A program made the translations under genes and the position numbers. The notes beneath the pieces are model-generated. The model was not told the DNA's origin. It saw only the letters and a list, made by a program, of their open reading frames with translations, and made no database searches. 64,000 bases of DNA from Polyangia bacterium (lineage in GTDB: Bacteria; Myxococcota_A; Polyangia; JAAYKL01). The stretch spans positions 18,186 through 82,185 of the forward strand of contig JBNKCR010000017.1 of assembly GCA_050287845.1 (NCBI GenBank), in the 5' to 3' direction. Below are positions 7,099 through 47,751 of this stretch, one piece after another (position 1 is the stretch's first letter; each line of letters begins with the position of its first letter).

Positions 7099-8043
7099 TC
7101 ATTTAACGGCACCGGGATCCCTCCCGAAAATCGGCTGAAGAGTCTGTGGTGTACCACATTCACTTTCAAATACGTATTGTTTCTGAATATAGAGAATATT
7201 CCCCAGTAACTGGCCACTATCCCTGGTGGGGTCGAACAACCAGCCTTCCAGTTCATAGGTCCATCCATCGTCACCGGTCACCGTACTGAGTGCAAAGGGG
7301 TGGCTGTCCAGCAGAAAAACATACTGACCATTGGCTCCCAGCGGTCGCATGGCCTCCTGACGAATCCGTTGCCACAGCAATTGTCCTGTGGTGGCTGCAA
7401 AGCGCTTCACCACATAACTCACGTTCTGGTCATCCCCCATCTTTCCGAATGCCAGCAATACATTTCCACTGACAAAAATATCTGTGGCCCCCGCCGCAGA
7501 GCGCCAGAATTCTGAATTGTCGAGAGGATTGATGGCGAGCATATCCCCAGTAAGAGTCTCAACCCCCACGCAGACACCGGAGACATTCTGAAACGATGCA
7601 ACGCCTGCAATAATCACATCATTACATGAAGTATCCACCTCATCGCCGGATATGGATACCACCGGATGAATCACATCCACTTTGTCGCCGTTGTTCACCC
7701 GAAACGCCGCCAACATGGGTTGGGGAAAACAGGGATCGGTGGCCTCCACCACCACACTGCCTGCATTGTCCTGCAGTCCGAGAATATTCACCTTTTCTCC
7801 CGGAACCCCCAACGCCTCGTATTCCCAACGGGATTCACCGGTAGCCGGATTCAATGCAAACAGCGCGCTGGAACCCCATTCGGGATCCACCTCTCTATAA
7901 CATTTACCGTCAGTGCATTCGTCACTGGGACAGGCGGGCAGAAATACACATGCCACCCACAGCAGCACAGGCAATCCCTTTGCTATGGCGCACCCACCGG
8001 GAAACGGGATGTGCCGATATCGTGATGTGTTTTTTTCCACCAT
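7099..8043 (-). CDS. PQQ/BamB-like beta-propeller lipoprotein
   Basis: Signal peptide with lipobox 'LPAC'. Repeated 'A.N..TGE..W.Y' PQQ-like blades. The likely start is 8043 (MVEKN), just downstream of recF. Confidence 0.5.
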   Translation of the reverse strand: MVEKNTSRYRHIPFPGGCAIAKGLPVLLWVACVFLPACPSDECTDGKCYREVDPEWGSSALFALNPATGESRWEYEALGVPGEKVNILGLQDNAGSVVVEATDPCFPQPMLAAFRVNNGDKVDVIHPVVSISGDEVDTSCNDVIIAGVASFQNVSGVCVGVETLTGDMLAINPLDNSEFWRSAAGATDIFVSGNVLLAFGKMGDDQNVSYVVKRFAATTGQLLWQRIRQEAMRPLGANGQYVFLLDSHPFALSTVTGDDGWTYELEGWLFDPTRDSGQLLGNILYIQKQYVFESECGTPQTLQPIFGRDPGAVK

Positions 8044-8057
8044 GTCAGACCTGCCTT

Positions 8058-9146
8058 TCACGCGGTGGTGAATTCGAAACCACCATCGGTCACCGTGAAA
8101 TCCCTTCGGTGACCATTAATATGAATGTAATCCCGGTGGGTGGTCGTAATGAATACCTGCCCCCCCATTCCCTGTAAAAATTCAAACAGATGCCGATTCC
8201 GTTTCTGGTCCAGTTCACTGGAGACATCGTCAAAAAGCAACAGGGGAATTTTTCCGGTACTCTCTGTGAGCGCCCTGGTTTCCGCAATCTTAGCCGCCAG
8301 CACCAGGGTTCGCTGCTGCCCCTGTGACCCGAACTTCTTCGCTTCTTTGCCGTTCAGGGAAAAAAACACATCGTCACTCTGGGGTCCACCGGTGGTGTAT
8401 TTCCGCGCACAATCCCGGGAAAATCGTGCATCAAGGGCTTTTAAAAAGGCTTCTTCATCGCCTTCGATTTTGGGCTGGTACTGCAAATCCGCCACGCCCC
8501 CATTGCTGATTTCTTTTACGGCGTCCGAAAAGAAAGGTCGCATGGAATCAATGAATGCCGCACGCAACCGGACAATTCGAGAACCGATTTGGGCGAGCTG
8601 CAAATCAAACGGCACCAGAGACCGTCGGTCCGGGGGGCCATCTTTGAGAATGCGATTCCGGTTGGCAATCACCCGGGCGTAGGTTTTGAACAGCGATGGA
8701 TATGTCGCATCCGCCTGAAACATGGCCCTATCGATAAATCGCCTTCTGGCATCGGGACTTCCCTGAACCAGTTCCATCACCTGGGGATGAAACAGCACCA
8801 TGGGCAACATCTGAAAATGACGACCGGATGCACTGATACGCTTTCCGTCCACTGAAACCGTGCGACTCGTTTCTGAAATATCGACTTCACAGGAAAGCCC
8901 GGCATGCAGCGATCCGAACCTCCCCCGGACTCTGGATTTCAATTCATCGTGATGAATCAGCTCGCTTCTTTTTGCCGTGCGGAATGAACGCAGCGCCCCC
9001 AGCAGATACACCGCTTCAACAAGATTGGTCTTCCCCATACCGTTGTGGCCGGAAATCACGTTAAACCGCTCACCCGGCTGAATTACTGCCTTCTTAATAT
9101 TCCGGAAGTGGATGACTGACAATTCATCCAGCTGAACGCGATCCAT
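8058..9146 (-). CDS. recF: DNA replication and repair protein RecF
   Basis: 'FRNIKKAVIQPGERFNVISGHNGMGKTNLVEA' is the RecF N-terminal Walker A. The protein is 362 aa and sits immediately downstream of dnaN. Confidence 0.9.
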   Translation of the reverse strand: MDRVQLDELSVIHFRNIKKAVIQPGERFNVISGHNGMGKTNLVEAVYLLGALRSFRTAKRSELIHHDELKSRVRGRFGSLHAGLSCEVDISETSRTVSVDGKRISASGRHFQMLPMVLFHPQVMELVQGSPDARRRFIDRAMFQADATYPSLFKTYARVIANRNRILKDGPPDRRSLVPFDLQLAQIGSRIVRLRAAFIDSMRPFFSDAVKEISNGGVADLQYQPKIEGDEEAFLKALDARFSRDCARKYTTGGPQSDDVFFSLNGKEAKKFGSQGQQRTLVLAAKIAETRALTESTGKIPLLLFDDVSSELDQKRNRHLFEFLQGMGGQVFITTTHRDYIHINGHRRDFTVTDGGFEFTTA

Positions 9147-9163
9147 CAGGGTACTCGTTTACA

Positions 9164-10306
9164 TCAGATACGCATGGGCATGACCACGCCCACAAAGGTA
9201 TCATCCAGATCCTTGACCACCGCCGGATCCAGATATCCCGCCAGCTCCAGAACCACTTCCTCGTCTCCAAGAACGTTGAGGACATCAATGAAGTATTTGG
9301 CGTTGAAGCCAATTTCCATGGCCTCGCCATCGTAATTGACATCCACTATCTCCGACCCTTCGCCAATAGATGGATTGTCCGTTGAAATTTCCACCGCGCC
9401 CTCGGTCAGCTGAAACTTGACGCCCAGGGTCCGATCGGAAGACACCACGGAAACGCGCTTGAGCGCATCCAGAATTTTTCCGCGCGATACAATGATACGC
9501 TTGTCCTGTCCCTTGGGAATCACCTGTTCGTACGGGGGAAACTCTGATTCAATCAGCTTGGAAACCAGGATGAATTCTGCTTTTTTAGCCGGCTCGTCGT
9601 CCACGGCCTTTTCGGCTTCCACATCTCGCTTGATAAAAACCGAACCATCCCGCGAACCGATGAGAACCATGTCATCGCCATCATCGAGCATTCGTTTGAT
9701 TTCACCGATGCCCTTGTTGGGAATCACCATGGAAAAATTATAAAACCCGCTCTGGTCGCTTTTCAGCTCAATTTTGGACAGTCGGTGTCCATCAGTGGTG
9801 ACCATGCGAAGCAGCTTTCCATCTCCCTGAAACAGTGCACCATTGATGTGGGGTCTGGTTTCGTCACTGGAAATGGAAAACGATGTTTTATCGATCATAT
9901 CGGCCAACATCCCCGGATCCACTTCAAAGAATTCCACATCCCCGGGTTGCGGCATACTGGGAAAATCATCCGCCGGGAGTCCAAGCAGCTTGAAATTGGA
10001 ACGCCCGCAACTGATTTCCACTGCATCGCCATCGGCTTTCAGACGAATCATTCCGTCCGGCATGGACCGAACGATATCATAAAGAGTTTTAGCCGGCAGT
10101 GTGATCTCGCCCTGCTGTTTCACATCCGCGGGAAATACACCGCTTGCGGACAGATTCAAATCCGTTGCCGCGAACTGCACATTTCCGTTCGGTTCAGTTG
10201 ATATGAGCACATTAGAAAGAATCTGCATCGAACTTTTTCTATCTGAAATGCTACTGGTACGAGCCAATGCGGATGCGAAACATTGCTTGGAGAGAACTAT
10301 TTCCAT
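9164..10306 (-). CDS. dnaN: DNA polymerase III beta subunit (sliding clamp)
   Basis: About 380 aa with beta-clamp topology and N-terminus 'MEIVLSKQ...LSNVLIS...ATDL'. An alternative upstream start is at 10327. Confidence 0.9.
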   Translation of the reverse strand: MEIVLSKQCFASALARTSSISDRKSSMQILSNVLISTEPNGNVQFAATDLNLSASGVFPADVKQQGEITLPAKTLYDIVRSMPDGMIRLKADGDAVEISCGRSNFKLLGLPADDFPSMPQPGDVEFFEVDPGMLADMIDKTSFSISSDETRPHINGALFQGDGKLLRMVTTDGHRLSKIELKSDQSGFYNFSMVIPNKGIGEIKRMLDDGDDMVLIGSRDGSVFIKRDVEAEKAVDDEPAKKAEFILVSKLIESEFPPYEQVIPKGQDKRIIVSRGKILDALKRVSVVSSDRTLGVKFQLTEGAVEISTDNPSIGEGSEIVDVNYDGEAMEIGFNAKYFIDVLNVLGDEEVVLELAGYLDPAVVKDLDDTFVGVVMPMRI

Positions 10307-10329
10307 TGAGATCATTCCTTTGTTCAATA

Positions 10330-10709
10330 AAAATTATCAAAAAAACAAATCATTGTTTTTTTCAATTTAACAATTACTGATAACAATAATTAATCGACTA
10401 TCATATAGAGTTTAAAAAATTGGTAAATGACTGTTTACAATTTTCTTAATTTTCACCCAAGGCCTTATTTCTTATCTTTATTATTTTTTTAAAACAAGTA
10501 GTCGTAGGTGGTGTGAATATGTGGATAAGTATAAATTATTTAATATTTTCAAACAACTATACACATTGAAAACTGTGGATGGTTTCTGTGGAAACAGGGA
10601 TTCAAACCGGTTTGCTGAAAATAGCAGAAGTTATTCACACTTTATTCATGGGTTGTTTCACAGAACAGTCACAGTTAACCCCAGTTTATTTAGAGGTTAA
10701 CCCCAGGCA
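10330..10709. other. candidate replication origin (oriC): AT-rich block plus DnaA-box-like sites between divergent dnaN and uvrB
   Basis: A perfect TGTGGATAA lies at about 10519-10527. One-to-two-mismatch boxes include TTATTCACA, TGTGGATGG and TGTGGAAAC. 10330-10500 is a long A/T-rich stretch. Flanking gene orientations diverge. Confidence 0.4.
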
Positions 10710-12737
10710 GTGAATATGGAATTTGAGAAATTCAGAATGCAGTCTCCTTTTGAACCCCGGGGCGATCAGCCACGCGCCATTCAACAGCTGGTGGACGGCC
10801 TGGAATCGGGCATCGCCCATCAGGTATTGCTGGGAATCACCGGTTCCGGGAAAACGTTCACCATGGCTTCGGTAATCGATCGATGCCATCGGCCTACCCT
10901 GGTGCTCGCCCACAACAAAACCCTTGCTGCTCAGCTGTACGCGGAGTTCAAGTCGCTTTTTCCGGATAACGCGGTGGAATACTTCGTGAGTTATTACGAT
11001 TATTATCAGCCCGAGGCGTATGTCCCTACAACTAATACATTTATAGAGAAAGATGCATCCATGAATGAGCAACTGGACCGGATGCGTCATGCGGCCACCC
11101 GGTCGCTATTGACCCGCCGCGATGTGATTGTTGTCTCGTCAGTCTCCTGCATCTACGGAATCGGCGCCCGGGAAGACTATACTCGCATGATGATCACCCT
11201 TCAGGAAAACGAAGCGGTTGGACGGGATGCGTTGCTGCGTTCACTCGTGGATATTCAATACAATCGGAACGATACCGATTTTTCGCGAGGGACTTTTCGG
11301 GTCCGGGGCGATACGGTGGAAGTTTTTCCGGTGTATGAAGACGAAAAAGCGGTTCGACTGGAATTCTGGGGGGATACCATCGACCGTATCAGCGAAATCG
11401 ATCCGCTGCGGGGCACCGTACTTCGAAATATACCCAAAGTATCTATTTTTCCAGGCACCCACTATGTGCTTCCCGAAGATAAAATGGCCCAGGCACTGGA
11501 TAGCATTCGCAGTGAACTGCAGGTACGGCTGCAGGAGCTGGACGCCGCCGGCAAACTCATTGAAAAACAGAGACTCGAGGAGCGAACCATGTATGACCTG
11601 GAAATGCTTCAGGAAACAGGGCACTGTTCGGGGATTGAAAATTACTCCAGGCACATGGACGGCCGGAATGAAGGCGAGCCGGCGACCACCCTCATCGATT
11701 ACTTCCCCGACGACTTTCTGATGTTCATTGACGAAAGTCATCAGACGGTGGCCCAGGTGGGGGCCATGTATAAAGGCGATCGTTCCCGCAAAGAAACCCT
11801 GGTTAATTATGGATTTCGATTGCCATCAGCCCTCGACAACCGGCCGCTCCGGTTTCACGAGTTCGAACAGAAGGTGTCTCAAGTGATTTATGTGTCCGCC
11901 ACGCCGGCAAATTACGAGCTCGAAAAGGCGCAGGGGGAGGTGGTGGAGCAGGTGATTCGGCCTACCGGATTGCTGGATCCCGTGGTGGAAGTGCGGCCGG
12001 CGAAAACCCAGGTCGATGACCTGCTCGAAGAAATCCGGCAGCGGGTGGAGCGGGGACACCGGATACTTGTAACCACACTCACCAAGCGGATGGCGGAGGA
12101 ATTAACCGAGTACTACACAGAAGTTGGCGTCCGGGTGCGTTACATGCATTCGGATATTGATACAGTGGAGCGGGTGGAAATCCTTCGGGAGTTGCGCGCC
12201 GGCACCTTTGATGTGCTGGTGGGAATTAATCTGCTTCGGGAAGGGTTGGATATTCCTGAAGTATCGCTGGTTGGAATTCTCGATGCGGACAAGGAGGGAT
12301 TTCTCCGGTCTACCCGATCACTGATTCAGACCATAGGTCGCGCGGCCCGGAATCTGGATGGCAAAGTCATTATGTATGGGGACACGGTGACCAAATCCAT
12401 GAACGAAGCCATCACCATCACCGAAGAAAGGCGGCAGCGGCAGGAGGCCTACAACGCGGCCAATGGAATAACCCCGCAGAGTGTCCAAAAGGCCATTTCC
12501 GAGGTGGGACCCGGAGCGGCAACCGCCGATTATGCCCCTGTGTCCCGAAGACCGGATAAGGCGGAACTGCAGGGGGACCCGACTGCCATGATTGAGGCGC
12601 TGAGAGAAGAAATGCTCACTGCGGCAGCGGCGTTGGAATTCGAAAAGGCAGCGGCGATTCGGGATGAAATCGAGGCAATTGCCCAAAGCCATGGGGTAAA
12701 AGTCACCGCCGGTAAACGGCGGAAGAGACGGCGATAG
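10710..12737 (+). CDS. uvrB: excinuclease ABC subunit B
   Basis: Motifs '[11 protein letters not shown]', '[10 protein letters not shown]', the [10 protein letters not shown] beta-hairpin, and a C-terminal UvrB/UvrC interaction domain. Confidence 0.95.
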
Positions 12738-12759
12738 GGCAGATGGTCAGCGGTTGACA

Positions 12760-12797
12760 AATAAAAAAACCCTTAAGTGATAAATACTTAAGGGTTT
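12760..12797 (-). terminator. rho-independent terminator hairpin (12-bp arms AAACCCTTAAGT / ACTTAAGGGTTT, 7-nt loop) followed by a U-run on the minus strand
   Basis: It is directly 3' of tRNA-Phe on the minus strand. The A6 run at 12761-12766 gives a U-tract in the minus transcript. It may also serve uvrB on the + strand. Confidence 0.6.
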
Positions 12798-12798
12798 G

Positions 12799-12872
12799 TG
12801 CCCAGACGCGGAATCGAACCACGGACACGGGGATTTTCAATCCCCTGCTCTACCGACTGAGCTATCTGGGCG
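12799..12872 (-). tRNA. tRNA-Phe (anticodon GAA), CCA not encoded
   Basis: The reverse complement folds as acceptor GCCCAGA/TCTGGGC, a D-arm GCTC-AGTCGGTA-GAGC, an anticodon stem GGGGA/TCCCC with loop TTGAAAA, and a T-arm CGTGG-TTCGATT-CCGCG. Confidence 0.9.
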
Positions 12873-13102
12873 CTCGGTCCTCAAAAAAGAGACCTTGAGT
12901 ATCTTCAACAAACTCCGGTTGTCAATGTATAAAATGAACAAAAAAACAAAAGAAGGTTGGTTTTTGGTAAATACGCGTCAATTAACTAAAAAATGGTTGT
13001 AAATTATGTTAATGAAAAGCCGTGCATAAATCTGTATATTCAACTCCCCGGATGAGAAATGAGAACCGGTTCATGAAAAAACAACCCAGGAATAATTGAT
13101 CG

Positions 13103-14827
13103 ATGCGAGTTTGTCCCCAGTGTGGAGAAAAATATCCCGGCGGTGAAATTTTTTGTCCCAGGGATGGCGCCAGGGTCACGGATCCCTCCAGTACCGCAGA
13201 TATTGTGCATCGTCGAAGTGTCCCCCCGAAAAAGGAAGAACACGATTCCCTGATTGGTTCCATGGTTCAGAATCGGTATCGGATCATCCGACGGCTCGGC
13301 GAAGGCGGGATGGGGGTGGTATATGAAGCCCTGCACGTGGAGATCGAAAAAAAGATGGCCATCAAGGTGCTTCGGGACGATTTTTCCGCAAAACCGGAAG
13401 TGGTGGAGCGTTTCCGACAGGAAGCCCGCTCCGCCAGTCGCGTTGGCAATCCACATATCGTGGACGTCACCGATTTCGGACAGTTGCCCGACGGCGGCGT
13501 GTTTTTTGCCATGGAGATGCTCGAAGGCGTGGCGTTGGACGAGCTGGTCACCGGGCAGTCCATTTCTCTGGAACGCGCGGTTCCACTGATTGATCAGATT
13601 GCCAGAGCATTACAGGCAGCCCATGACAAGGGGATTGTGCACCGGGATTTGAAGCCGGAAAATATCATTATTGTGCAGCGGGAAGAAGAGGGGGATTTTG
13701 TAAAAATTCTCGATTTCGGTATCGCCAAAATTTCCGATCAGGATACCGAAGGCAAGCGACTGACCCAGACCGGGATGATCTTCGGCACGCCGGAGTATAT
13801 GTCGCCGGAGCAGGCTTCGGGGAAATCCCTGGATCATCGGGTGGACGTGTATGCACTGGGATGCATCATGTTTGAGATGTTCACCGGACAGGTGCCATAT
13901 ACCGGCGATTCCTTCATGGCCATTCTAACCCAGCACATGTTTGAACCCATACCGGATATTCAGGAAATAAATCCGGCGTGTGACGTTCCCCCGTCGGTAC
14001 TTAACGTAGTGTATAAAGCCATGTCCAAGGATGCGGATACCCGCTATGCCAATATGTACGCACTGCGTGAAGATTTGCACCGTGCGCTGGCGGATGCCGA
14101 TTTCGTGGTGGATTATCCTGGCCGGGACCAGTCCGCTTCCATTGTGCTGGGCAACCTTGCTGGCGGCACCAATCGGATTGCCACCCGTCGGGCCAACCCC
14201 ATTTCAATGGCCTATATGCAGAAAAGACCGCAATTCATGAAAGTGATTGTTGCGCTGATGCTGCTGATTGTCGGACTGGTGGGGTTATTGCTGTACACAT
14301 GGCGGGATGATGATTCGAGTGAAAGCGCTATCGCCGGAAGCCGGCAGGCAAAGGTGGAACCCCTGCCGCAAATTGATGAATCTCCCGCGCCACCACCGTC
14401 GCAGGAAACAGATACCGGGGAGGAAGCGTCCGCACCTTCCCGAATTACCGCCAGTTTTCTTACGGTTCCGGAAGGAGCCGTCATTCATATCGCCGGCATG
14501 GGGCAGGTGTGTTCCAGCGCGCCCTGTCAGGTTGAAGTGGAAGTGGGCGTCCCCATTGAAGTCAGTGCCCGGGTGGGTGAATTCACCCGGACCGAGGTGT
14601 TCACTCCATCGACTCAGAATCGGGAGTTGACTCTGATTGTCAAAACAGAAGAAATATCGGATACTGGTGAGAATGAGACAGACGGGGATACTGGCGACGT
14701 TTCGGTCGCGGCGAAAAAGAATCTCAAGAAGAAACGCCGTCGAATTCCCGGTCGAAAATCCGGGAGAACCAGTAAAGGCAATGCAACTGGCGGGCTGAAG
14801 ATTCCCGATTTGTTCAAAAATAATTAA
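13103..14827 (+). CDS. Ser/Thr protein kinase with N-terminal zinc ribbon, TM segment and C-terminal PEGA-like domain
   Basis: Zn-ribbon candidate 'CPQCGEKYPGGEIFCPRDG'. Kinase motifs 'LGEGGMGVVYEA', 'HRDLKPENII' and 'DFGIAK'. A TM helix 'VIVALMLLIVGLVGLLLY', then 'VPEGAVIHIAG' after it. Confidence 0.85.
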   Translation: MRVCPQCGEKYPGGEIFCPRDGARVTDPSSTADIVHRRSVPPKKEEHDSLIGSMVQNRYRIIRRLGEGGMGVVYEALHVEIEKKMAIKVLRDDFSAKPEVVERFRQEARSASRVGNPHIVDVTDFGQLPDGGVFFAMEMLEGVALDELVTGQSISLERAVPLIDQIARALQAAHDKGIVHRDLKPENIIIVQREEEGDFVKILDFGIAKISDQDTEGKRLTQTGMIFGTPEYMSPEQASGKSLDHRVDVYALGCIMFEMFTGQVPYTGDSFMAILTQHMFEPIPDIQEINPACDVPPSVLNVVYKAMSKDADTRYANMYALREDLHRALADADFVVDYPGRDQSASIVLGNLAGGTNRIATRRANPISMAYMQKRPQFMKVIVALMLLIVGLVGLLLYTWRDDDSSESAIAGSRQAKVEPLPQIDESPAPPPSQETDTGEEASAPSRITASFLTVPEGAVIHIAGMGQVCSSAPCQVEVEVGVPIEVSARVGEFTRTEVFTPSTQNRELTLIVKTEEISDTGENETDGDTGDVSVAAKKNLKKKRRRIPGRKSGRTSKGNATGGLKIPDLFKNN

Positions 14828-14919
14828 CCGTAAACGGTCACTTTTCCCTTGATAAAAGCCCGGTTACCTGAAATACATCATCATTGAAAACTGGAAATTA
14901 GGAATTTCATTTCTGAAAA

Positions 14920-15390
14920 TTGCAACATTGCAAGAAGATATGCAGGTTTATGTTGAGGCCGCAAATGCACATTGTCTGGCAAAAAAAATATAACGTCAAC
15001 GTGCTGGAAATCGATGCGCAATACCGCAATCTGGTGGAATCATTCAATAGTCTGGTCCGGCTGGTCAAGCTGGGGGTCACATCATCCGAAGTTATCATCC
15101 AGGTGGATTTGGTGAAATCCCGGATTCAGAACTGTTTCAGCATTGAGGAGTTATATTTTCAGAAACTGGGATTCAACGATATCGGTCAATACCGACAGGC
15201 ACATTCCGCCTGCATGCTGCAGCTCAGCGCTTTCAGACAGAATTATGATCCGCAGCAACCCCTGATCAATCTGGCGCATATTGAAGGCATTGCCAGTACA
15301 CTGCTCGAACACATCGCATCCAGTCATACAGAATTCAATACATACATGAAAGAAAACCGGCTTCGCACTTTCATGAAAGCACACGCATGA
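14920..15390 (+). CDS. hypothetical protein, possibly a divergent hemerythrin-like domain
   Basis: 'W...YNVNVLEIDAQYRNLVESFNSL' resembles the hemerythrin HHE N-terminal motif, but the canonical His residues are not evident. The start may be the internal Met at about 14965. Confidence 0.3.
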   Translation: MQHCKKICRFMLRPQMHIVWQKKYNVNVLEIDAQYRNLVESFNSLVRLVKLGVTSSEVIIQVDLVKSRIQNCFSIEELYFQKLGFNDIGQYRQAHSACMLQLSAFRQNYDPQQPLINLAHIEGIASTLLEHIASSHTEFNTYMKENRLRTFMKAHA

Positions 15391-15445: not shown

Positions 15446-17878
15446 TTACCAGCAGCGCTTGCGTACCGCTTCATGCCATGCCACCAGGTCTGCGTCATTG
15501 GGCGTCATGATCAACGCATGTTCAATCAGGGGCAGGGCTTTTTGTACCTCGCCCAGGTGGTAGAACAGGGCAGCGACGGATTTGAGCGCTTCGGGACTGG
15601 CATAATGTGTGAGATACAGCGCCTGCCACGCCAGTTGGACAGCCTGCTGTCGGGTTTCGCTGGAAATATGCTGGAGATGGTCGGCGGCGATGGTCAAATA
15701 GGTGGTCATCAGCATTGTGTCATTCGGTTCAGCGAGCAGCGCATTTTCAATGATCGCCATACCAGCTGAAATTTCGCCGCGGGAGATATGGAGCAATGCC
15801 TGCATCTGAAGAAAAAGCGAACCGTTTTCATCCAGATAATCAGCCATCTGATTCAGAACGTGGGCAGCATCGCCATTGGCACGTCTGGCAATATGAATAT
15901 CAAATTCGAGTTTGTCCATCATAAAAATATTGGCTGGAAGAGAGGTTCTCTCCCGAAGTCTCCTGATGGCCACCAGCGCTTCTTCATAATGGTGGGTTCT
16001 GAAAAGAAGGTCCATTCGCAGCAAGGCCAGATCGAGAGGGGAGCTCACTTCATCATAATACCGGCTGACCAGTTCATATGCTCCCGCAAAATCACCGCGT
16101 CGACTCAACGTGAGGGCTTGAACAATGACTGCATCGTGTCCCGCTGGTGCTTCTCTCCTGGGTTTGGCCAGATGTAGAGATTCGCCATTGGCGCCTGCGG
16201 ACACCATATTGATTGCCAGTCCTGAATAGCTTTTATCCAGAAAAAAGGAGATATTGTTTCGATGATCTGCAAAATTCGAAGCACCCCGACTCAATGCGAC
16301 ATAATTGGCGCCGGTGTTCATTTTAGGTCCCACGGCCGAATCAATACTATGCCATTTTTCCCCGTCCCAATATTCGTTCCACATGTGAAAGACCCAGGCG
16401 CCACCGTGGGTCAGGTACATTCCCGAAACCAGCCTGGTGGGAATACCGGCAGCCCGCATCAGCGATGCAAACAGAACAGAATGCTCGGTACAATCTCCAT
16501 TTCCGTTTTTTAATGTTGAAACCGCGTCCTGCATGGTATGGGTCTGTTGTTTCACGGGCAAAATGGCATGCACATATTCTGCTATTAATCGCGCGGCCTT
16601 TTCTGAATCGTTCCAGAAAATTTTCGGGTTACGAATCCTTTCCGCTTTGGCGATAATTGGAACCGCGTTGTCGCACCGGTGGGCGGGTAGACTTCCCCGT
16701 TTTGACGCGGATTTCAAATATAAAAATGCATCTCGAATGGTTCTGGTATTTGTATTGATATATTTTGTGCTGGACAGATCGTCGTCGGTGGGCGGATCGT
16801 CACCATCTGGTCCTCCGGCGGTTACCTTCAGTTCCAGGGTGTGATCATCCAGCTGCTTCAGTGTCTGATTGTCAGGTTCCGCGATAAAGGCGAATTCATC
16901 GAGAGACAGTGGCTGTGAAGATACAATATGATATACCGCATCTGTGGCGCCGTCCGCAAATCCCAGATACGCATCAGAAAAAAGGCCTCGATACGGATCA
17001 GTGTATGCCGTGGGGTTTGAAAACCCATTGTTCGTGAGGGTTCGTGCCTGATGAAGAGAAGGATATTTTTCCACGTATGTACGACCATCGACACCAACAA
17101 ACACTTTTACAACAACCCGTTCGGTTCCCCGTCGAAGCGCTGACACCCAGGTACCGGCAATCAGGTGATCTCCAACGGTAATGGTTTCCTTTTTGCCGAG
17201 TTTCATATCCAGAGAAACGGATGCTTCGACTTTTGGCGTGTACCATAAAACCGACTTCTCTGTGTTGGCAGATGATCTCCCGGTTGCGATATTCTGCAGC
17301 AGACGGTTTAATTGATTTCCGACCAGCTCATCACCCCGGATAGACAAAGGAGTTGGATTTGTCCGAATCGGACTTTCGACGGTTTCGAGATTTTCTTCAA
17401 CCCGTTCCCACGTGGCGCCGTTGAATCCAACCAACGAAAGATGCACATTGCCTTCATCTATCGCCACATTGCATCCCCGTAAAAAAATGCCATTCTCTTT
17501 TAAAAACCGTTCGGTCTGAACAGTGAACCGATCCACTTCTACCTCGTGGGATTTGTGCCGGGTCACCAGATGTGAGATAGTGATTTCCTCCGGCCCCATC
17601 GGTCCCTCGGACGGAAAGGTGGTTCGGACCTCCCGTCCCACATCCATCCCATCCTGGGTGACGAGAAATATCTGATGGGTCCAGCCATTGGGACTGTCAA
17701 TGGTATCGCAGCTTCGCGGATTCATCTCCGGCGCTGTTGTCGTTTGGCTGTTCATCTCGCCGGTGGATGGTGGTGCGATTGACCCACGGGGATGTTCCGC
17801 TGTTTGAATAGAACCACAAGCCAGCGCAAATTGAATTAAAAGAAGTTGGATAAAAAAAAGTACTTTTCGTTTGGCCAC
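15446..17878 (-). CDS. lipoprotein with transglutaminase-like cysteine protease core and C-terminal TPR repeats
   Basis: Lipobox 'LAC'. The transglutaminase core is 'GDCTEHSVLFASLMRAAGIPTRLVSGMY...HMWNEYW'. The C-terminal third has TPR-like repeats. It lies 4 bp downstream of cdsA on the same strand. Confidence 0.7.
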   Translation of the reverse strand: MAKRKVLFFIQLLLIQFALACGSIQTAEHPRGSIAPPSTGEMNSQTTTAPEMNPRSCDTIDSPNGWTHQIFLVTQDGMDVGREVRTTFPSEGPMGPEEITISHLVTRHKSHEVEVDRFTVQTERFLKENGIFLRGCNVAIDEGNVHLSLVGFNGATWERVEENLETVESPIRTNPTPLSIRGDELVGNQLNRLLQNIATGRSSANTEKSVLWYTPKVEASVSLDMKLGKKETITVGDHLIAGTWVSALRRGTERVVVKVFVGVDGRTYVEKYPSLHQARTLTNNGFSNPTAYTDPYRGLFSDAYLGFADGATDAVYHIVSSQPLSLDEFAFIAEPDNQTLKQLDDHTLELKVTAGGPDGDDPPTDDDLSSTKYINTNTRTIRDAFLYLKSASKRGSLPAHRCDNAVPIIAKAERIRNPKIFWNDSEKAARLIAEYVHAILPVKQQTHTMQDAVSTLKNGNGDCTEHSVLFASLMRAAGIPTRLVSGMYLTHGGAWVFHMWNEYWDGEKWHSIDSAVGPKMNTGANYVALSRGASNFADHRNNISFFLDKSYSGLAINMVSAGANGESLHLAKPRREAPAGHDAVIVQALTLSRRGDFAGAYELVSRYYDEVSSPLDLALLRMDLLFRTHHYEEALVAIRRLRERTSLPANIFMMDKLEFDIHIARRANGDAAHVLNQMADYLDENGSLFLQMQALLHISRGEISAGMAIIENALLAEPNDTMLMTTYLTIAADHLQHISSETRQQAVQLAWQALYLTHYASPEALKSVAALFYHLGEVQKALPLIEHALIMTPNDADLVAWHEAVRKRCW

Positions 17879-17882
17879 CAGT

Positions 17883-18689
17883 TCACCTTAGCATGATGTA
17901 AAGGAGAACCAATGGAGCACCCAGCATCAGGGCATCACATCTGTCCAGAATGCCGCCATGTCCGGGAATCAGTTTGCTCGCATCTTTCACATTGAAGCTT
18001 CGTTTAATAAAGGACTCCATCAGGTCTCCAACTTGAGAAACAACGCCCAATATAATACCGAGACCAACGGCGTGCAAAAGTTCCCATTCCTTCAAAAAAA
18101 AGTGCTGCATTGCAATTGCGGCCAATACACTGCCCCCGATACCTCCCACAGAACCTTCCCATGTTTTATTGGGGCTGAGCACTTTGTGCAACTTGTGCTT
18201 TCCGAACAGTTTTCCGAAGGTATATGCAAAAGTGTCATTGAGAATGACTGAACTTAACAACAGAATCAACCACATCCGTCCCTGTTCGAAAAAGGGAATT
18301 AACCCGATGGCTCCAAACAGTCCACCGACATACAAAGATCCGGCTGTGGCCAGGGACGCATTTATCAGGGACTGTCGCGTATCTTTTCCCGAAAACATGA
18401 ACAATCCGAAATTCAGTGGCGCGACGGTCATTAATAATACGGTTGGTGCCTGCGGGATCCGGGTTAGCATGCAAACGGTTCCGGCAATGACCGCGCTGAG
18501 GGACGAAACCCAGAATCGAAATCTGGCGTACTCGTGATTGATTGCCATATTCGCAAATTCATATCCAGCCATGCCTGCAAGCACGGCGGCCGTCGCAGCC
18601 ACATACACCGGATGGGCCAATAGAATCAGTGCCAGCACTGGCGGAATAATGATCAGTGCCGTAACAACGCGTAGAGCTAAATTTGACAT
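17883..18689 (-). CDS. cdsA: phosphatidate cytidylyltransferase
   Basis: Polytopic membrane protein ending in the CdsA signature 'GHGGILDRCD'. Confidence 0.85.
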   Translation of the reverse strand: MSNLALRVVTALIIIPPVLALILLAHPVYVAATAAVLAGMAGYEFANMAINHEYARFRFWVSSLSAVIAGTVCMLTRIPQAPTVLLMTVAPLNFGLFMFSGKDTRQSLINASLATAGSLYVGGLFGAIGLIPFFEQGRMWLILLLSSVILNDTFAYTFGKLFGKHKLHKVLSPNKTWEGSVGGIGGSVLAAIAMQHFFLKEWELLHAVGLGIILGVVSQVGDLMESFIKRSFNVKDASKLIPGHGGILDRCDALMLGAPLVLLYIMLR

Positions 18690-19435
18690 TATTTTCCTAT
18701 TGCGCCGTATCTTCGGTTTCTGCTGCCGTAGGCTGCCAGCGCGTCAGTCAGATCGTCTTCGGTGAAATCTGGCCACATTTTATTTGAGAAATAGAATTCC
18801 GCATAGGCACAACTCCATAGCAGGAAGTTGGACAGCCTCAGTTCGCCGGAGGTACGTATCATCAAGTCAACGGGACCGAGATTACCGGACCACAGCGCCT
18901 CGGTCAAGGTTTGAACAGTGATCTGCTCAGGCATCAAATCCCCGCAGACACAGGATTTACAAATCTTCCGGGTTGCAGCGATGATTTCTTCCTGCCCACC
19001 ATAGGAAAGCGCAAGGCACAGAGTCATTCCAGTATTATCTGCAGATTCATCCATCATTTGCTTCAGCGATTTATATACAGAAACGGGAAGCTGGTCTATT
19101 TCACCGATGGCAGTGAGTCGGATATTGTTGTCCATAATTGTGCAACGTTCACGACGTATATATTCGGCGAGCAATTCCATCAGCGCTTTTACTTCCAGAG
19201 ATGGTCGCCGCCAATTCTGCGATGAAAACGCATAGAGCGTCAGACATTTGATGCCACGGGCTCTGCAGGCGGTCACAACCATATCAACGGTTTTGGCGCC
19301 CTGCCGATGACCGGCGATACGATGCATTCCCTTGCTTTGCGCCCATCGGCCATTGCCGTCCATGATAATAGCAACGTGGCCGGGCAGATTTTCTACAGGA
19401 GAAATCATTTGAAAGCTCATACCATACCATCGCAT
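18689..19435 (-). CDS. uppS: undecaprenyl diphosphate synthase (isoprenyl transferase)
   Basis: 'HVAIIMDGNGRWA' and 'LTLYAFSSQNWRRP'. It overlaps the cdsA start. The true start may be an internal Met. Confidence 0.9.
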   Translation of the reverse strand: MRWYGMSFQMISPVENLPGHVAIIMDGNGRWAQSKGMHRIAGHRQGAKTVDMVVTACRARGIKCLTLYAFSSQNWRRPSLEVKALMELLAEYIRRERCTIMDNNIRLTAIGEIDQLPVSVYKSLKQMMDESADNTGMTLCLALSYGGQEEIIAATRKICKSCVCGDLMPEQITVQTLTEALWSGNLGPVDLMIRTSGELRLSNFLLWSCAYAEFYFSNKMWPDFTEDDLTDALAAYGSRNRRYGAIGK

Positions 19436-19589
19436 AACCTCAAAGAGTTAAAATATACGCTCATGTACCGTTTTATATCTGTAAACTTGTTGTCATTTCC
19501 CTTAAAAGAAATTTCAGATCACTTGGTTTTGCTTTACCCATCCCGGGCTGTGCGCAATATTAATAAAGTGAAGGATGAAAGAAAAAGAC

Positions 19590-20513
19590 ATGAACGAAGA
19601 TCTCTATAAAGTATTGGAATTGCAACGCAGCGCTTCTGACTCAGACATCAAGAAGGCGTATCGCCGATTGGCCCGCAAATACCATCCCGATACCAACACC
19701 AACAATCCGGAAGCTGAAGAAAAGTTCAAACAGATAGCTGCCGCATACGCGGTTTTGAGTGACAGGAAAAAAAAGGAACTGTACGACAAGTACGGCATCA
19801 ATGGTCTTCGGGATGGGTTTGATGAAAATCAGTGGCGTCAATATGGGGGGGGCGGCGATTCTGCAGGAGATTTCAATTTTGGCGGTTTTTCCGGATTTGG
19901 AGGTATGGAGAGCATCTTCGAAACCCTTTTTGGTGGCAGTCGGGCCAGAGGTCGGGCAGGCCGGGTCAGTGGCTCCCCGCCATGGAGCACGTCCGGGGGG
20001 CAAAAGGGAGGCGACGTCAAATCGAAACTGGATATTGATCAACTGGATGCGATTCTGGGACGGGAACTCGAATTGCTGGTTCCCATTGGTGGCCAGCAGA
20101 AGAAACTCAAAGTGAAGATTCCAAGGGGAATTGAAAACGGCAAATCCATTCGTCTGAAGCATCAGGGGAGTCCCGGCATGTTCAGCGGCTCTGCCGGTGA
20201 CTTGATTCTTGAACTCAATATCCGGGACAATGGTCCATATCGGCGACAGGGGGATAACCTTATCCGGGAGGCGTCCATCACAGTTCCGCAAGCGTATTTC
20301 GGCGACACCATTTCTGTGGAAACCCCATGGGGAGAAGGCAAGCTGAAAGTGCCGCCCCATACACAGGGAGGCACCCGGATGAGAATTAAAGGGCATGGTA
20401 TCCGAAAAGGGGAACAAAAAGGCGACCTTCTGGTGCAAATCAATGTGCTTATCCCTGAGTCCACCGACAAGAAATCTGAAGAACTGATCCGTAAACTCGA
20501 AAAACTCTATTGA
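19590..20513 (+). CDS. DnaJ-domain protein lacking zinc finger (CbpA-like curved-DNA-binding co-chaperone)
   Basis: J domain 'DLYKVLEL...[13 protein letters not shown]' with HPD. A G/F-rich linker, DnaJ C-terminal beta domains, and no CxxCxGxG repeats. Confidence 0.8.
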
Positions 20514-21388
20514 GAAGTCAACCGTATTCTATTTCATGTTCTGGATGTTATTTACTCTGCCAGGAACACTCACCTGAAATGACATCGGAGGTAAGTCCTT
20601 CGATTTTTCCTTTTTTTTTATTCGTCAAGCCAATTGATGATTTATCGGCTTTCAGGGTGACTCAATATATATTCGATGGAAGCGTCGGATTTCGTTTTTT
20701 TGATTTTCCATATTCGGTGTTGCAGATACCCATCTCAATGAATCACAAAATTTGCCTTTCGAATATCCGGGTGTCCGGAACGGCGACCGGTTTGAATCCT
20801 TTTTGCATTCGCGCGAGACCAGCATCTTCAGACTTTCGTCCACTGTCCCTCGGTCGATGAAGTGTCAGCTACACATTGTTCGGGCTTTGCGAATTCGCAT
20901 AGAAAACTGCTTGTATTGCTGCGATTTCGTCGGTGGAAACAGGTGTTGGACCCCGTTTCTGGAAAGTATTATCAGCGCCGCTTTCTATCAATTCGTCCTG
21001 TTTTCGTTTGTCCCAGACATTGAAGGCAGCGATACATGCTTTTTATTCAGTAGTATTCAGTTCTACCACTTCAAGGAACGCCTCACCCTTTCAACCGACC
21101 AGAACCCCTATGACATTTGAATTACCCGACTCTGAAACCAATCTTCTTGTTGGGTACCATTTTCTTTCATCTGCTTCTACCAGTACGTGTAGGATTATCA
21201 GACGAAACATGATGGCGGAGCAGTGATACCAACCGTACTGGCGAACTTCGGCACTGAAACTTACGATTCTTTCCAGTATTCAATGCAATTGGCTTCAAAA
21301 CAGAGTATGCGGGGAGTGTATTTCGCTTTCCTGCTGGATATTTGGAAATTATACAGGTAAAACAACTCCAGTTTTTGCTGCAAGGCAT

Positions 21389-21560
21389 ATGTTTCACGTG
21401 AAACATTACTCTTCAGGAGTTCATGGTGGCGGTACCTGTAAAAAAGTTATCCACAGTTATCCACATGTTTCACGTGAAACAACGTAAAAGAAAGTGAGTA
21501 AAGACGCGGGTTTTATAGCCCTTGATAAAATCGCAAATTTTTTATAACAATTTATCCACA
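21389..21560. promoter_or_regulatory. regulatory array: three perfect DnaA boxes interleaved with two copies of an 18-bp palindrome ATGTTTCACGTGAAACAT
   Basis: TTATCCACA sits at 21447-21455, 21457-21465 and 21552-21560. The 18-bp palindrome is perfect at 21389-21406 and 17/18 at 21465-21482. The array lies 40-210 bp upstream of queC. Confidence 0.45.
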
Positions 21561-21601
21561 GGCTGGAAGAAGACAGATTTTTACTGTTATGGGATTTTAA
21601 T

Positions 21602-22276
21602 ATGAACGAAAAAAAGAAAAAAGCGGTGGTTTTGTTGTCCGGAGGCATGGATTCCTCGGTGGTATTGGCGGATGCGATATCCAGGGGGTATGAAGTGTAC
21701 GCATTGACGTTTTATTACGGACAACGACATCGGGTGGAATTGGAAACGGCAAAAAAGCAGGTGGCTGCAGCGAATGTTGCCAACCATATCGTTTTTGACT
21801 TGAATCTGGCTCAATTCGGCGGGTCGGCGCTGACCGATAATATAGCTGTTCCACATAACATTGATGCCAATGAAATCCCAGTGACCTATGTACCCGCCCG
21901 AAATACGGTGTTCCTGTCTGTGGCGTTGTCTTATGCGGAAGCCATCGGGGCGAGGGACATTTTTATTGGCGTGTCTTCAGTGGACTATTCCGGATATCCG
22001 GATTGTCGTCCGGAATTCATTGAATCCTTTGAGCGGACGGCCAATTTGGGAACCAAAGCTGCGGATGGGGGAGAACTCTTTCGAATTCATGCGCCTCTGA
22101 TTCGCCTGAGCAAAGAAGAAACGGTGTTACTGGGGAGAAAATATGGGGTAAATTTCAAAAATACCCATACTTGCTATGACCCGACACCGGACGGTAAGCC
22201 GTGTGGAGAATGTGATTCGTGCCGATTGCGAAAAAAAGGATTTGATGAAGCAGGATTGGATGACCCGGCGATTTGA
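21602..22276 (+). CDS. queC: 7-cyano-7-deazaguanine synthase
   Basis: PP-loop 'KAVVLLSGGMDSSV' and the C-terminal zinc-binding Cys cluster 'CGECDSC'. Confidence 0.9.
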   Translation: MNEKKKKAVVLLSGGMDSSVVLADAISRGYEVYALTFYYGQRHRVELETAKKQVAAANVANHIVFDLNLAQFGGSALTDNIAVPHNIDANEIPVTYVPARNTVFLSVALSYAEAIGARDIFIGVSSVDYSGYPDCRPEFIESFERTANLGTKAADGGELFRIHAPLIRLSKEETVLLGRKYGVNFKNTHTCYDPTPDGKPCGECDSCRLRKKGFDEAGLDDPAI

Positions 22277-30210: not shown

Positions 30211-30702
30211 TCAGGTGAAAAACAATAATTTGGTTATTGGTATTTGTAGCGCTGTTGATACCTTGAGAAGAGTGGACAGATTGGGAAGGCTCAGACCCTT
30301 TTCCAGACGTGCGATGTTGGGGCGTCGAATACCGGTTTCTTTGGCCAGGTCGTTTTGGGTAATGCCGCGGTCAAGGCGAGCGCACCGGATGCGTTGACCG
30401 ATGAGTTCCCCGAAATTTTCCGGATACGTTAGTGGCTCGGCGTCGGTGTTGTTGATTGCGTCCAGTTTGTCTGGTGCAGACCCGATACTGTCTTCCATTG
30501 AGGCTGCAACGTTTTCCCTGGTCCTGGTGACTGATTTGTATACTGTTTCAGTGTACCGGTGAAAAAAATCGATCGGTGGCGGGGCTACGGAAACCGTGTG
30601 CCGCGAAAAGAACAGTTCATCAAGGACGCCTTCAGCCAGTCGAATCTGCTGGATAATCCCGGCAGCTTTCTCGAGTCTGGTTTGAATCTCAATTTGATTC
30701 AT
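30211..30702 (-). CDS. XRE-family HTH regulator with unusual C-terminal placement of the HTH
   Basis: 'IGQRIRCARLDRGITQNDLAKETGIRRPNIARLEKG' is HTH_XRE, located in the last third. The N-terminal about 100 aa is unassigned. Start is the ATG at 30702 with GGAG upstream. Confidence 0.6.
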   Translation of the reverse strand: MNQIEIQTRLEKAAGIIQQIRLAEGVLDELFFSRHTVSVAPPPIDFFHRYTETVYKSVTRTRENVAASMEDSIGSAPDKLDAINNTDAEPLTYPENFGELIGQRIRCARLDRGITQNDLAKETGIRRPNIARLEKGLSLPNLSTLLKVSTALQIPITKLLFFT

Positions 30703-30706
30703 GGTT

Positions 30707-30997
30707 TCAGTCTCCGGTACTGCTGAGGTCGTCCAATTGGTCCCGCAGCCATACAAGCTCATCACAAAGTGCAGCATTGGATCGCTTTAACAATGCATAC
30801 CTGTCTTTGAGTAACTCATATTTCTGTCGGGTTGTTGTGAATTGCTCCTCAAGCTGCTCCACGACCAGGGCAAATCGCTTACTGGTGGATGGGTCGCTCT
30901 GCGCTTCATTTTTCAGGCTTACCAGCCGACTAATCACCATGGACAGGGTTTCTATTCCCATGGGATCGCTTTGGGATGTTGGGGTTATATTTTCCAT
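30707..30997 (-). CDS. small coiled-coil protein (96 aa), immediately upstream of and co-oriented with the XRE regulator
   Basis: There is a heptad-like pattern 'LEEQF...YELLKDRYALLKRSNAALCDELVWLRDQLDDL'. The gap to the next start is 4 bp, suggesting a bicistronic unit. Confidence 0.4.
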   Translation of the reverse strand: MENITPTSQSDPMGIETLSMVISRLVSLKNEAQSDPSTSKRFALVVEQLEEQFTTTRQKYELLKDRYALLKRSNAALCDELVWLRDQLDDLSSTGD

Positions 30998-34468: not shown

Positions 34469-37400
34469 ATGAAGAATCGAAATTATCTGTTGGTCATCTG
34501 GTGGACACTTTCAGTGGTGCTGGTTTCGTGTCATCCAAAGCCCAGGGTGAAAACGGATACCGAGACGACGGAAGCGCAGTCGGATTCCACGGAAATTAGA
34601 AAATTGCTGTCGTTGCCCCCCAGAACAGACGGAGATGGTCTCGTCTTTGAAATTCGGGAAGCGTCGGGGCCGTCATTGGACGCCGAAAAACCGAAACAGG
34701 TGAAAGGCGAGATCCTGGACGAAAAAACCGTGGAGAATCTGATGAAACGCACGGGCGTAACATTTACGACCGAAGCCAGAAAAAAAGATACCGTGATGAA
34801 ACGGGCAGCCACGCCGCCGCCTCAGAGAACCAGGAAAGTGGAGACTCCCCTGGGCGAAAAAAAATCGGTGCCAGAAGCGGAGGATAATGAAGCGCAGGAT
34901 AATCGGGAACTGAAGGTGGTGAGATATGCGCCGGAAGGAAATGTGGCGATGGCGCCTCACGTGAGCATTACATTTTCCAAACCGATGATTCCGGTGTCGG
35001 GTATTGCGACGGCGCAGGAACTGCCGGTCAAAATGACGCCCCTTCCGCAGGGTCGCTGGGAATGGCTGGGCACCGAAACCCTGATTTTCAGACCGAAGAC
35101 CCGATTGCCCATGGCTACCGGATATTCGGTGGAAATCCCATCGACGGTGACCTCGCTGGATGGGACCCGAATAAAGGGTTCAAAGAAATTCACATTCCAG
35201 ACACCGCCACTCCAGGTTGTCGGCAGCTATCCCACCGGAGACAGTGTGGTGCCCACTTCGCCGCTGGTACTGGCATTCAACCAGTCCATCGATCCTGAGG
35301 CGTTGATGCCCTACATTGAAGTGACTGGAAACGGTAAGGCCCAGCATGTACGAGTTGCAACGGACGATGAAGTCCGAATGATTTTTGAAAATGAACTCAT
35401 TCCCTTTGAAAAAGACCAGAAAGATCGCCTGCTCATTCTGCTGACAGAAGGGCTTATGAAAGGCGCGACGATTCAGATTCGGGTAAAGAAAAAGGCCCCT
35501 TCCGCAGAGGGCCCTATCCGTACGGACAAACAACAGACAGTGGCGTTTTCGACATATCGTCCCCTTGCAGCGGAGGCGTGTGGTTGTGGCGGTAAAAACG
35601 AATGTCGGCCAGATGAACAGGTATTTGTGAAATTCAATAATAACCTGGATTTCGATCAGTTCAGCGACGGTGATGTGACGGTGAATCCCCCCATTGAAAA
35701 CATGATGATCGGACCCGCCCATGGGGGACTGTACATCATGGGCATGAAAAATGGGAAAACTGAATATCGGGTGCAGTTGTCTGACCGTATTACCGATGTG
35801 TTCGGCCAGAAACTGGATAAAGAAAAAGAATTTACATTTACCACGACCCGGATGAAGCCGGCCCTTGTGGGAGTTGGGCAATCCATGGTGGTCCTGTCCC
35901 CCTTTTCAGAAAAGGAAATTCTTTTTCATGCGGTGAATCACGACGTCCTGAGTGTGATGGTGCATCACATGACCGAGGCAGACCTGAAACCCTGGCTGGA
36001 CTGGATGAGCGACCGGCGCCGGGGCAAAGCTGATTTGGCCGATATGCCGGGAAAAAAATTGATCGCAGAAAAAAGGCAACTGACGTCCAATGACAGATGG
36101 CAGAAAGTACCGGTAAATCTGACGCCGTATCTGGAGAATGGTTACGGACAGTTTGCTGTGGTGGTGGCGCCAGTGAACCAACCTAAAAATCACTGGCAGC
36201 GGCAGGAAGAAATCGTGTGGGTGCAGATTACCGATATCGGAATATCAACATACAAAGATGCCACTTCGCTCCACGTGGCCGCTTCTGAACTGAAAAATGG
36301 TGCGCCGCTGGCCAACGTGAAATTAAAGTTGTTTTCCGAAACGGAAGACGAACGGTCTTCCGTGCAGACAGATAAAGACGGCTATGCGCGAATGGCATTG
36401 GATGCCGACCGGTCTCTTTTTCTGACGGCGAAAAAGGGAAGTGATACGGCCATTCAATTGGCAGGTCATCCCGGCCGATTTGGCTATACGGGATTCGCCT
36501 GGACCAGTCAGGAAAGAAAAAACAGATACACCGCGTATCTGGAAACCGACCGGGGTATGTATAAACCGGGGGAAACGGTGAATGTGAAAGGATGGGTGCG
36601 GGAGATTGACGCGAACAATGGATATGCCCTGGCACCAACTACCCGACCGGTGCAAAAAATAAAATGGAAGGTGACCGGTCCGAGGGGAATTGAACTTGGA
36701 CGCGGAACAAAAACCACGAGCCAGGTGGGCGGTTTCGATTTTAAATTGAAAATTCCCGGGGATGCCAATACCGGGACCGCCTATATGGAATTGATGAATG
36801 AAAAAGGCGGTAGTATTGAATCCCGCATCTCTGGAAACGACTATTTTGAAATTCAGGAATTCAGAAAACCGGAATTCGAGGTCACGACAACTGTGAGTGA
36901 CGGACCTTATATTATTGGCGCCACTGCACAGGCAACCCTGATTGCCACATTCTACAGCGGAGAACCCCTTGGGGGAGCAGACGTGCATTGGACGGTGAGT
37001 TCGGTCAACAGTTCGTATTCACCGCCAAATCACGGGGACTTTTCATTTGGAAAATATAATCCATGGTGGGGGTATTGGACGAAGAATATGGGGGGGCGAA
37101 AAACAGAAGAAATCAGGGGGATCACCGGGGGGGACGGCGCCCACCGGGTGAATCTGCATTTCACATCCGCGCCGGACGGACAGCCTTCCCGTATGACTCT
37201 CGTGGGGACAGCCATGGATATCAATCGGCAACAGTGGTCCGGATCAACGGAATTTGTGGTGCATCCCGCGAGCCGTTATGTGGGGTTGAAGCTGGCGAAG
37301 AATTTTGTCGAAAGAAATGAATCGCTGGAGGTGAGCGCCATTGTAACCGACATAGATGGCCGACTGAGTCGTGGTGAGCAGGTGGTTCTATCACTGATGA

Positions 37401-43828: not shown

Positions 43829-43885
43829 GAATAAGTCTCTTTCTTTCCGACGATTGTTCATTTTTAAAACATGGAACGATTTAAT

Positions 43886-45009: not shown

Positions 45010-45029
45010 AATCAATAGGAAACCCCTGA

Positions 45030-47731: not shown

Positions 47732-47751
47732 AATAAAAAACGAGGACAGCA

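Follow-up and report, generated by a model that had tools for sequence, protein, structure and literature searches.

The centromere site of bacterial chromosomes, parS, is bound by ParB (Spo0J). Published work describes how ParB dimers load at parS and, once CTP is bound, form closed clamps, which slide to the flanking DNA and give rise to the partition complex. These sites are usually close to the replication origin; 92% of them are within the origin-nearest 15% of the chromosome, and the distance is 8 kb in Caulobacter and within 10 kb in Bacillus subtilis. There are also reports of crosstalk between the segregation sites and the replication initiator DnaA. For example, the centromere of Caulobacter crescentus is 8 kb from the origin Cori and DnaA binds inside the parS locus, at a site that is needed for the DnaA-dependent movement of the centromere (Mera, Kalogeraki and Shapiro, 2014, as reviewed in PMC6399470 and PMC4468827). 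Likewise, direct contacts between ParB and DnaA are listed in a review for Vibrio cholerae and Deinococcus radiodurans. The stretch discussed here is 64,000 nucleotides of contig JBNKCR010000017.1 of a Polyangia bacterium (the window), in which two palindromes interleaved with perfect DnaA boxes are found upstream of queC. This element is very probably an origin-proximal chromosome centromere with built-in DnaA boxes, as far as its sequence and conservation can tell.

The 18-bp palindrome ATGTTTCACGTGAAACAT had been described in an earlier note on this DNA as an unrecognized operator. Letter for letter, however, its inner 16-mer TGTTTCACGTGAAACA is the published consensus parS, the centromere site of ParB/Spo0J, and no unknown operator. 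Jalal et al. termed TGTTTCAC-GTGAAACA the consensus parS and crystallised ParB on GATGTTTCACGTGAAACATC, and according to a review the chromosomal parS is highly conserved as TGTTNCACGTGAAACA in most bacteria, with exactly TGTTTCACGTGAAACA in Hyphomonas. The literature matches listed for the exact 16-mer are mostly ParB/parS studies and include one Hi-C work, where it appears as a ParB binding site. Another interpretation of the same 16-mer was given in Ori-Finder 2008 (PMC2275245), which took it as paired ‘species-specific DnaA boxes’; TGTTTCACG was proposed as the ‘species-specific DnaA box’ of Bradyrhizobiaceae, since the predicted origins contain TGTTTCACGTGAAACA (PMC2275245).

The perfect 16-mer occurs twice in the window (parS-a and parS-b; Table 1) and has no further perfect copy in the 64 kb, where three matches with up to three mismatches are found against 0.32 expected. 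The 18-bp form is complete around parS-a and has a 17/18 copy at 21465-21482. No other copy of the 16-mer was found in 74 kb of the contig (the window and 10 kb rightward) or in the 13-21-kb loci of the relatives. The pair is located to the right of the predicted oriC, 10.9 kb off, a position typical for parS. Four features of a chromosomal parS are found here, namely the consensus 16-mer, the origin-proximal place, the few copies and, as a mark of purifying selection, a core conserved in relatives between diverging flanks. It is very improbable that some regulator different from ParB binds the palindrome, or that it is a dispersed repeat of the repetitive extragenic palindromic (REP) type. 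The lack of a parB gene on the 74 kb of DNA read would suit such a reading, but the consensus is matched 16/16 twice, the copies are confined to one spacer near the origin, and the core is invariant in relatives; of the hundreds of copies genome-wide by which the earlier note would have recognized a REP-like element, no further one is found in 74 kb of the contig or around the loci of the relatives. The suggestion of a dimeric regulator was right in that the sites of a dimeric protein are interleaved with the boxes, and wrong in that the regulator is not an unknown one, since the site is the consensus parS of ParB. Because both palindromes are 16/16 identical to this consensus, the XRE protein of the window is not needed as a candidate binder.

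The boxes are likewise not a product of chance. The window contains five perfect TTATCCACA against 0.48 expected, a number reached in 0 of 100 shuffles, and three of the five lie inside 114 bp on the same strand upstream of queC. Two of these form the tandem GTTATCCACAGTTATCCACA (21446-21465) between parS-a and parS-b, with box 2 flush against parS-b, and the third is found 71 nt past parS-b; all three are perfect and on the plus strand. The coordinates given earlier for palindromes and boxes are confirmed to the base; the boxes are real, non-random and conserved, boxes 1 and 3 being kept in relatives. An isolated fifth perfect box at 62266-62274(-), inside a radical-SAM/HemN-like gene of a haem operon, is probably a chance occurrence or a weak regulatory site.

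Table 1. Features of the parS/DnaA-box element, the predicted origin and the genes around them (positions of the window)
Feature	Position	Strand	Remarks
recF	8058-9146	-	
dnaN	9164-10327	-	
oriC, dnaN-uvrB spacer (predicted)	10328-10709	-	GC-skew minimum, AT-rich tract, basal unwinding system (BUS) module
uvrB	10710-12737	+	
Ser/Thr kinase	13103-14827	+	
hemerythrin	14920-15390	+	
transglutaminase/TPR protein	15446-17878	-	
cdsA	17883-18689	-	
uppS	18689-19435	-	
dnaJ/cbpA-like gene	19575-20513	+	
gap without called gene	20514-21601		1,088 bp
parS-a, perfect 16-bp consensus parS	21390-21405		exact match to TGTTTCAC-GTGAAACA; 18-bp extension 21389-21406
DnaA box 1, conserved distal	21447-21455	+	perfect TTATCCACA
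DnaA box 2, lineage-specific, tandem with box 1	21457-21465	+	perfect TTATCCACA in the window
parS-b, perfect 16-bp consensus parS	21466-21481		16/16 match to consensus
conserved block CGCGGnTTTTAnA	21505-21518		between parS-b and putative -35; columns kept in close relatives; no Rfam match
putative sigma-70-type queC promoter	21522-21551	+	TTGATA, 17-18 nt, TAACAA/AACAAT
DnaA box 3, conserved promoter-proximal	21552-21560	+	perfect TTATCCACA
queC, 7-cyano-7-deazaguanine synthase	21602-22276	+	TIGR00364, E = 8.6e-65; first gene downstream, then queE
queE, yjbQ, phosphomutase, ssb, clpB	from 22176		

The arrangement is conserved in relatives. The loci compared were those of relatives with QueC 92, 78, 76, 75, 73, 64 and 61% identical to that of the window, to which were added one locus found via DnaN at 70% identity, ending inside the module, and one AT-rich metagenomic contig (L135), the single extra lineage from a metagenome scan for the full module. 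The window itself matches contig JBNKDV010000068.1 of GCA_050288445.1, a metagenome-assembled genome. The nearest named relatives are metagenome-assembled genomes (MAGs) labelled “Deltaproteobacteria”, “Polyangia” or “Myxococcota”. In all the relatives the gene order of the dnaJ-like gene, the module, queC and queE is syntenic, and nine lineages (the window and eight relatives, with QueC 61-100% identical where measured) share one module, which consists of a parS, a variable gap, a DnaA box, 11 nt, a second parS, about 71 nt, and a DnaA box at the predicted queC transcription start. All the relatives examined have the 14-bp core GTTTCACGTGAAAC of parS-a ahead of box 1, with a gap of 4-42 nt to the box. 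Box 1 (GTTATCCACAG) is perfect in six relatives (L003, L007, L009, L130, L132 and L135), has one mismatch in L005 and L129 and two in L134, while box 3 is free of mismatches in each of the nine lineages, the window being one of them. Of the relatives, only L130 lacks the core of parS-b.

The spacings are conserved, too. From box 1 to the core of parS-b there are 11 nt (10 nt in one lineage), and from this core to box 3 there are 71 nt in six lineages, and 69 and 75 nt in two; the start of box 1 is 103-109 bp from that of box 3, mostly 105 bp or ten helical turns, and from the start of box 3 it is 42-55 nt to the ATG of queC, or 27 nt in the AT-rich L135. These values hold down to a QueC identity of 61% and in the AT-rich metagenomic lineage. 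The letters in between are free to change by comparison. In an ungapped alignment of five lineages, the invariant columns are 14/14 for the parS-b core, 9/9 for box 3 and 8/9 for box 1, against 0/11 in the 11-nt gap and 21/71 in the 71-nt spacer. Box 2 does not belong to this pattern, as it has one mismatch in the closest relative (L003, QueC 92%) and is missing in all the more distant ones; judged by this distribution, it is a recent duplication, a species-level addition and not an ancestral part. The conserved and rigid geometry of boxes and parS is the sole mildly surprising part of an element that is otherwise of a familiar kind.

The origin to which this element is close can be placed with some detail. 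A BUS is defined by a DnaA box, a spacer of up to 16 bp and then at least three DnaA-trios, with the central A on the other strand (PMC8287927), and such a module is found in the dnaN-uvrB spacer. On the minus strand, TTATCCACA (10528-10520) is followed by an overlapping box with two mismatches, ATATTCACA (10520-10512), by CCAC, and by the trios CTA CGA CTA CTT GTT TTA (10507-10490), beyond which is an AT-rich tract at 10328-10489 with a GC content of 0.20. Among the lowest-GC 120-bp segments of the 64 kb, 11 of 15, including the eight lowest, are at 10281-10441 (18-24% GC). The minimum of the cumulative GC skew falls at 9-11 kb, and the skew is already positive at 21 kb. The core of this origin is nearly invariant in relatives with DnaN 91%, 90% and 70% identical. 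On these features the real oriC is the dnaN-uvrB spacer, which has no adjacent dnaA; no dnaA gene was found in the window. As the lineage's own oriC uses TTATCCACA, its DnaA is expected to recognize that box. In one relative (L007 1-4100, also L008, against window 7099-15390) an inversion that spans the origin has turned the whole uvrB-oriC-dnaN-recF-PQQ block around, and neither the Ser/Thr kinase gene nor the hemerythrin gene is found at that position.

With the origin placed, it is highly improbable that the region upstream of queC is part of a bipartite origin, as had been proposed, or a second origin in its own right. The region has more perfect boxes than the dnaN-proximal one and is moderately AT-rich (GC 0.33-0.37), but it is without a strongly AT-rich tract, and a scan of 21300-21620 on both strands gave 0 BUS candidates, so that no module of box, spacer and trios is present on either strand. 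The skew minimum at 10 kb and the complete, conserved unwinding module are both at dnaN-uvrB, and eight genes and 11 kb separate the clusters, whereas the two parts of known bipartite origins, such as that of Helicobacter pylori, flank a single gene. The distance of about 11 kb between the clusters was correctly estimated (10.9 kb from the perfect box at 10520-10528). The remark that the queC-upstream cluster is the better consensus match holds for the number of perfect boxes, three against one, and fails for the architecture of an origin.

The same count of boxes bears on the proposal of a locus that titrates or inactivates DnaA, of the datA or DnaA-box-cluster type. Three perfect and high-affinity boxes in 114 bp near oriC would be in its favour. 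datA, however, has about five boxes and an IHF site, and the clusters of B. subtilis have many boxes; here conservation extends to just two boxes, the third being specific to the species, the capacity would be very small, and the number stays below five. This proposal is quite improbable.

Composites of parS and DnaA boxes are not limited to this lineage. In a scan with a single genome for each species, at least 119 loci of other phyla had a perfect box no more than 30 nt away from a parS core, 64 of these with a ParB-like open reading frame (ORF) in the 8-kb locus. Micromonosporaceae have TTATCCACA-GAAG-TTATCCACA, followed after 9-10 nt by GTTTCACGTGAAAC, and in Dactylosporangium roseum the composite is 445 bp downstream of parB. 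In Caulobacter MAGs a box is found 25 nt from the parS core. Among the matches listed, the tandem boxes at 9-10 nt from parS were seen at L059 1739-1782(-) and at about 50 other Micromonosporaceae loci (L010-L128), in Actinoplanes, Micromonospora, Dactylosporangium and related genera, 0.1-4 kb from parB; no description of this composite was found in the literature searched. Another form, TTATCCACA-AT-GTTTCACGTGAAAC, in which only 2 nt separate box and core, occurs in MAGs of uncultured Bacilli/Tenericutes (L018, L020, L023, L060, L064, L065, L078, L091, L104, L122 and L125), some contigs of which have 3-4 cores within 450 bp.

The third box leads to the question of what the boxes do at queC. 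A promoter-like pair TTGnnA-17-TAACA[AG] is kept in the relatives and box 3 comes directly after it, which leaves 18-46 nt to the ATG of queC in all the lineages. Read from this arrangement, queCE is probably under the control of DnaA, and the earlier idea of a DnaA-regulated queC promoter is plausible in so far as box 3 stands just after the conserved TTGnnA-17-TAACAA pair in nine lineages, although the pair itself is weak in a consensus scan. It is a distinct possibility that the boxes are merely operators of the queCE promoter, with DnaA as a transcription factor and with parS being close by incidentally in a shared spacer. Clusters of DnaA boxes near the origin that regulate promoters are known, for example at oriCII/gidA of Pseudomonas aeruginosa, and L130 retains both boxes without parS-b. 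However, box 1 is about 105 bp upstream of box 3 and one helical turn from parS-b over an unconstrained 11 nt, which points to a link with a parS-bound protein. To our knowledge, there is no known link between queuosine synthesis and DnaA, which also counts against boxes that serve as operators alone. A role in queCE transcription is, in any case, compatible with a centromere.

Several points weigh against the centromere with built-in boxes. In L130 parS-b is lost and both boxes are retained, so the boxes can persist without an adjacent parS, and a promoter role fits this at least as well. The fixed spacing of 71 nt could be explained by the promoter architecture alone; the promoter consensus scan, for its part, found one site in the region against a shuffled mean of 2.6 and is weak when taken alone. 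No parA or parB was found in the window, the 10 kb rightward or the loci of the relatives, either by Pfam/NCBIfam annotation, which covered nearly all ORFs of at least 150 aa, or by tblastn with an actinobacterial ParB, and a cognate ParB is assumed for this genome. The boxes near parS in other phyla represent recurrence and not statistical enrichment, with shared ancestry among the matches. Finally, all the support for the centromere is of the sequence kind. The sole match in the search for parAB was a 518-aa ParA/CbiA-type ATPase fused to HTH_19/HTH_25, encoded at L133 18881-20437 (about 70.7-72.3 kb in window coordinates) with no ParB after it; this fusion is not the canonical partition ATPase.

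In the centromere with built-in boxes, ParB would recognize both parS sites, load there as CTP clamps and build the partition complex. DnaA would occupy the high-affinity boxes 1 and 3 for most of the cell cycle, and this occupancy would report the initiator level to the centromere as well as to the queCE promoter. At the distance of one helical turn between box 1 and parS-b, DnaA and ParB would share a face of the DNA and touch or just fit; a spacer of 11 nt that is kept in length and free in sequence is what such a placement would lead one to expect. Box 3 would cover the transcription start of queC, and its place on the predicted start suggests that DnaA represses queCE. In this species, DnaA and ParB would exclude each other at box 2, which is flush with parS-b.

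The same geometry could be read in a different manner, with the boxes that flank parS-b acting as roadblocks, or being joined in a DnaA-DnaA loop, and thereby confining or directing the sliding ParB-CTP clamps and shaping the partition complex. Sliding ParB clamps are halted by tightly bound proteins, and the same-orientation boxes do bracket parS-b, with a phasing that is fixed at 11 nt on one side and at about 105 bp between the boxes. Nevertheless, such a role is improbable: it is deduced purely from the layout, parS-a is outside the bracket, and L130 has no parS-b to be confined. A wider proposal is tentative and rather doubtful. The module may be a dedicated device for coupling replication with segregation, holding DnaA and ParB in a fixed register, in which the occupancy by the initiator gates the loading or sliding of ParB, the release of the centromere and the local transcription; the composites of other phyla would then be independent, and the Caulobacter case would be an instance of a widespread rule, recognizable in the sequence itself.

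The spacer in which the module lies has some features of its own. In the window and in the 92% relative, about 0.9-1.1 kb of apparently non-coding DNA separates the dnaJ/cbpA-like gene from parS-a (window 20514-21388; L003 8696-9788); this long spacer is limited to these two, the other relatives having 150-750 bp in total. Even with the 92% relative (L003) the 1.1-kb spacer aligns only in patches, and because of this it was treated as non-coding. Pfam/NCBIfam gave nothing for the small ORFs at 20510-20860, 20752-21120, 20933-21226, 21167-21406(-) and 20652-20843(-). Similarly, no RNA family of Rfam was found in 20500-21700 (the whole window at the gathering threshold, the region at E ≤ 1), and as Rfam had no match, a preQ1 riboswitch or other leader is unsupported.

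Other parts of the window include an XRE-family helix-turn-helix (HTH) protein at 30211-30777(-) and, just downstream of it, a minus-strand ORF of 84-102 aa. Both keep their place between clpB and a sulfatase gene in all the relatives; the two may be a conserved regulatory or toxin-antitoxin-like gene pair. A bacterial alpha-2-macroglobulin of 2,019 aa with MG2, bait region, A2M and bMG10 domains is encoded at 34469-40528. A defence-type island at 41006-48942 contains the hsdR, hsdM and hsdS genes of a Type I restriction-modification system, among which a Fic gene and a HEPN/RES protein are inserted, and overlaps a dip in GC content to about 0.43 centred at 46-49 kb.

The locus offers a lesson for annotation, as a CACGTG-centred palindrome beside DnaA boxes would be read as a centromere, and not as a new operator or a second origin; Ori-Finder 2008 erred the other way, in taking the 16-mer for DnaA boxes. 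It also places the origin and the centromere of an uncultured Myxococcota-like lineage, with parS unlinked from parAB. Crosstalk between initiation and segregation has been shown experimentally only in Caulobacter; if true DnaA binding takes place at such composites, it would be predictable from the sequence in many bacteria.

Known systems resemble this module to different degrees. The tandem same-strand DnaA boxes, of which the upstream one is conserved, are similar to those of a BUS, but parS is present where the trios belong, with no run of trios or AT-rich tract, and the true BUS is at 10490-10528. In rctA/parS2 of V. cholerae chromosome II, centromere and initiator sites share a short locus and both proteins co-occupy it; there, however, the initiator is RctB and not DnaA, the locus titrates the initiator, and it stands beside the origin of a secondary chromosome. 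oriCII of P. aeruginosa, upstream of gidAB-parAB, is a second, non-origin cluster of DnaA boxes near the true origin, where DnaA controls the adjacent promoter, and it likewise links initiation to segregation. The boxes of P. aeruginosa control the par genes and have parS 10-20 kb off, whereas those of the window lie in between the parS sites and next to them, with queCE as the genes downstream. The Micromonosporaceae composite has tandem boxes in the same orientation about one turn from the parS core, with the same GTTATCCACAGG flanks as here; it differs in belonging to another phylum, in being 0.1-4 kb from parB, and in lacking both queC and a further box at a distance of about 105 bp. Compared with chromosomal parS elsewhere, such as the Spo0J sites of B. 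subtilis (TGTTNCACGTGAAACA), the sites of the window are not beside parAB, and no ParB-like ORF is found in the 74 kb; they have the same 16-bp palindrome, the low copy number, the closeness to oriC (about 11 kb here) and the conservation. Caulobacter differs in the spacing and the number of the sites, as the boxes here are perfect, one of them is on a predicted promoter, and the distances of 11 nt and about 105 bp appear rigid. Like Caulobacter, this locus has a DnaA-binding sequence within the parS locus a few kilobases from the origin, 8 kb there and 11 kb here.

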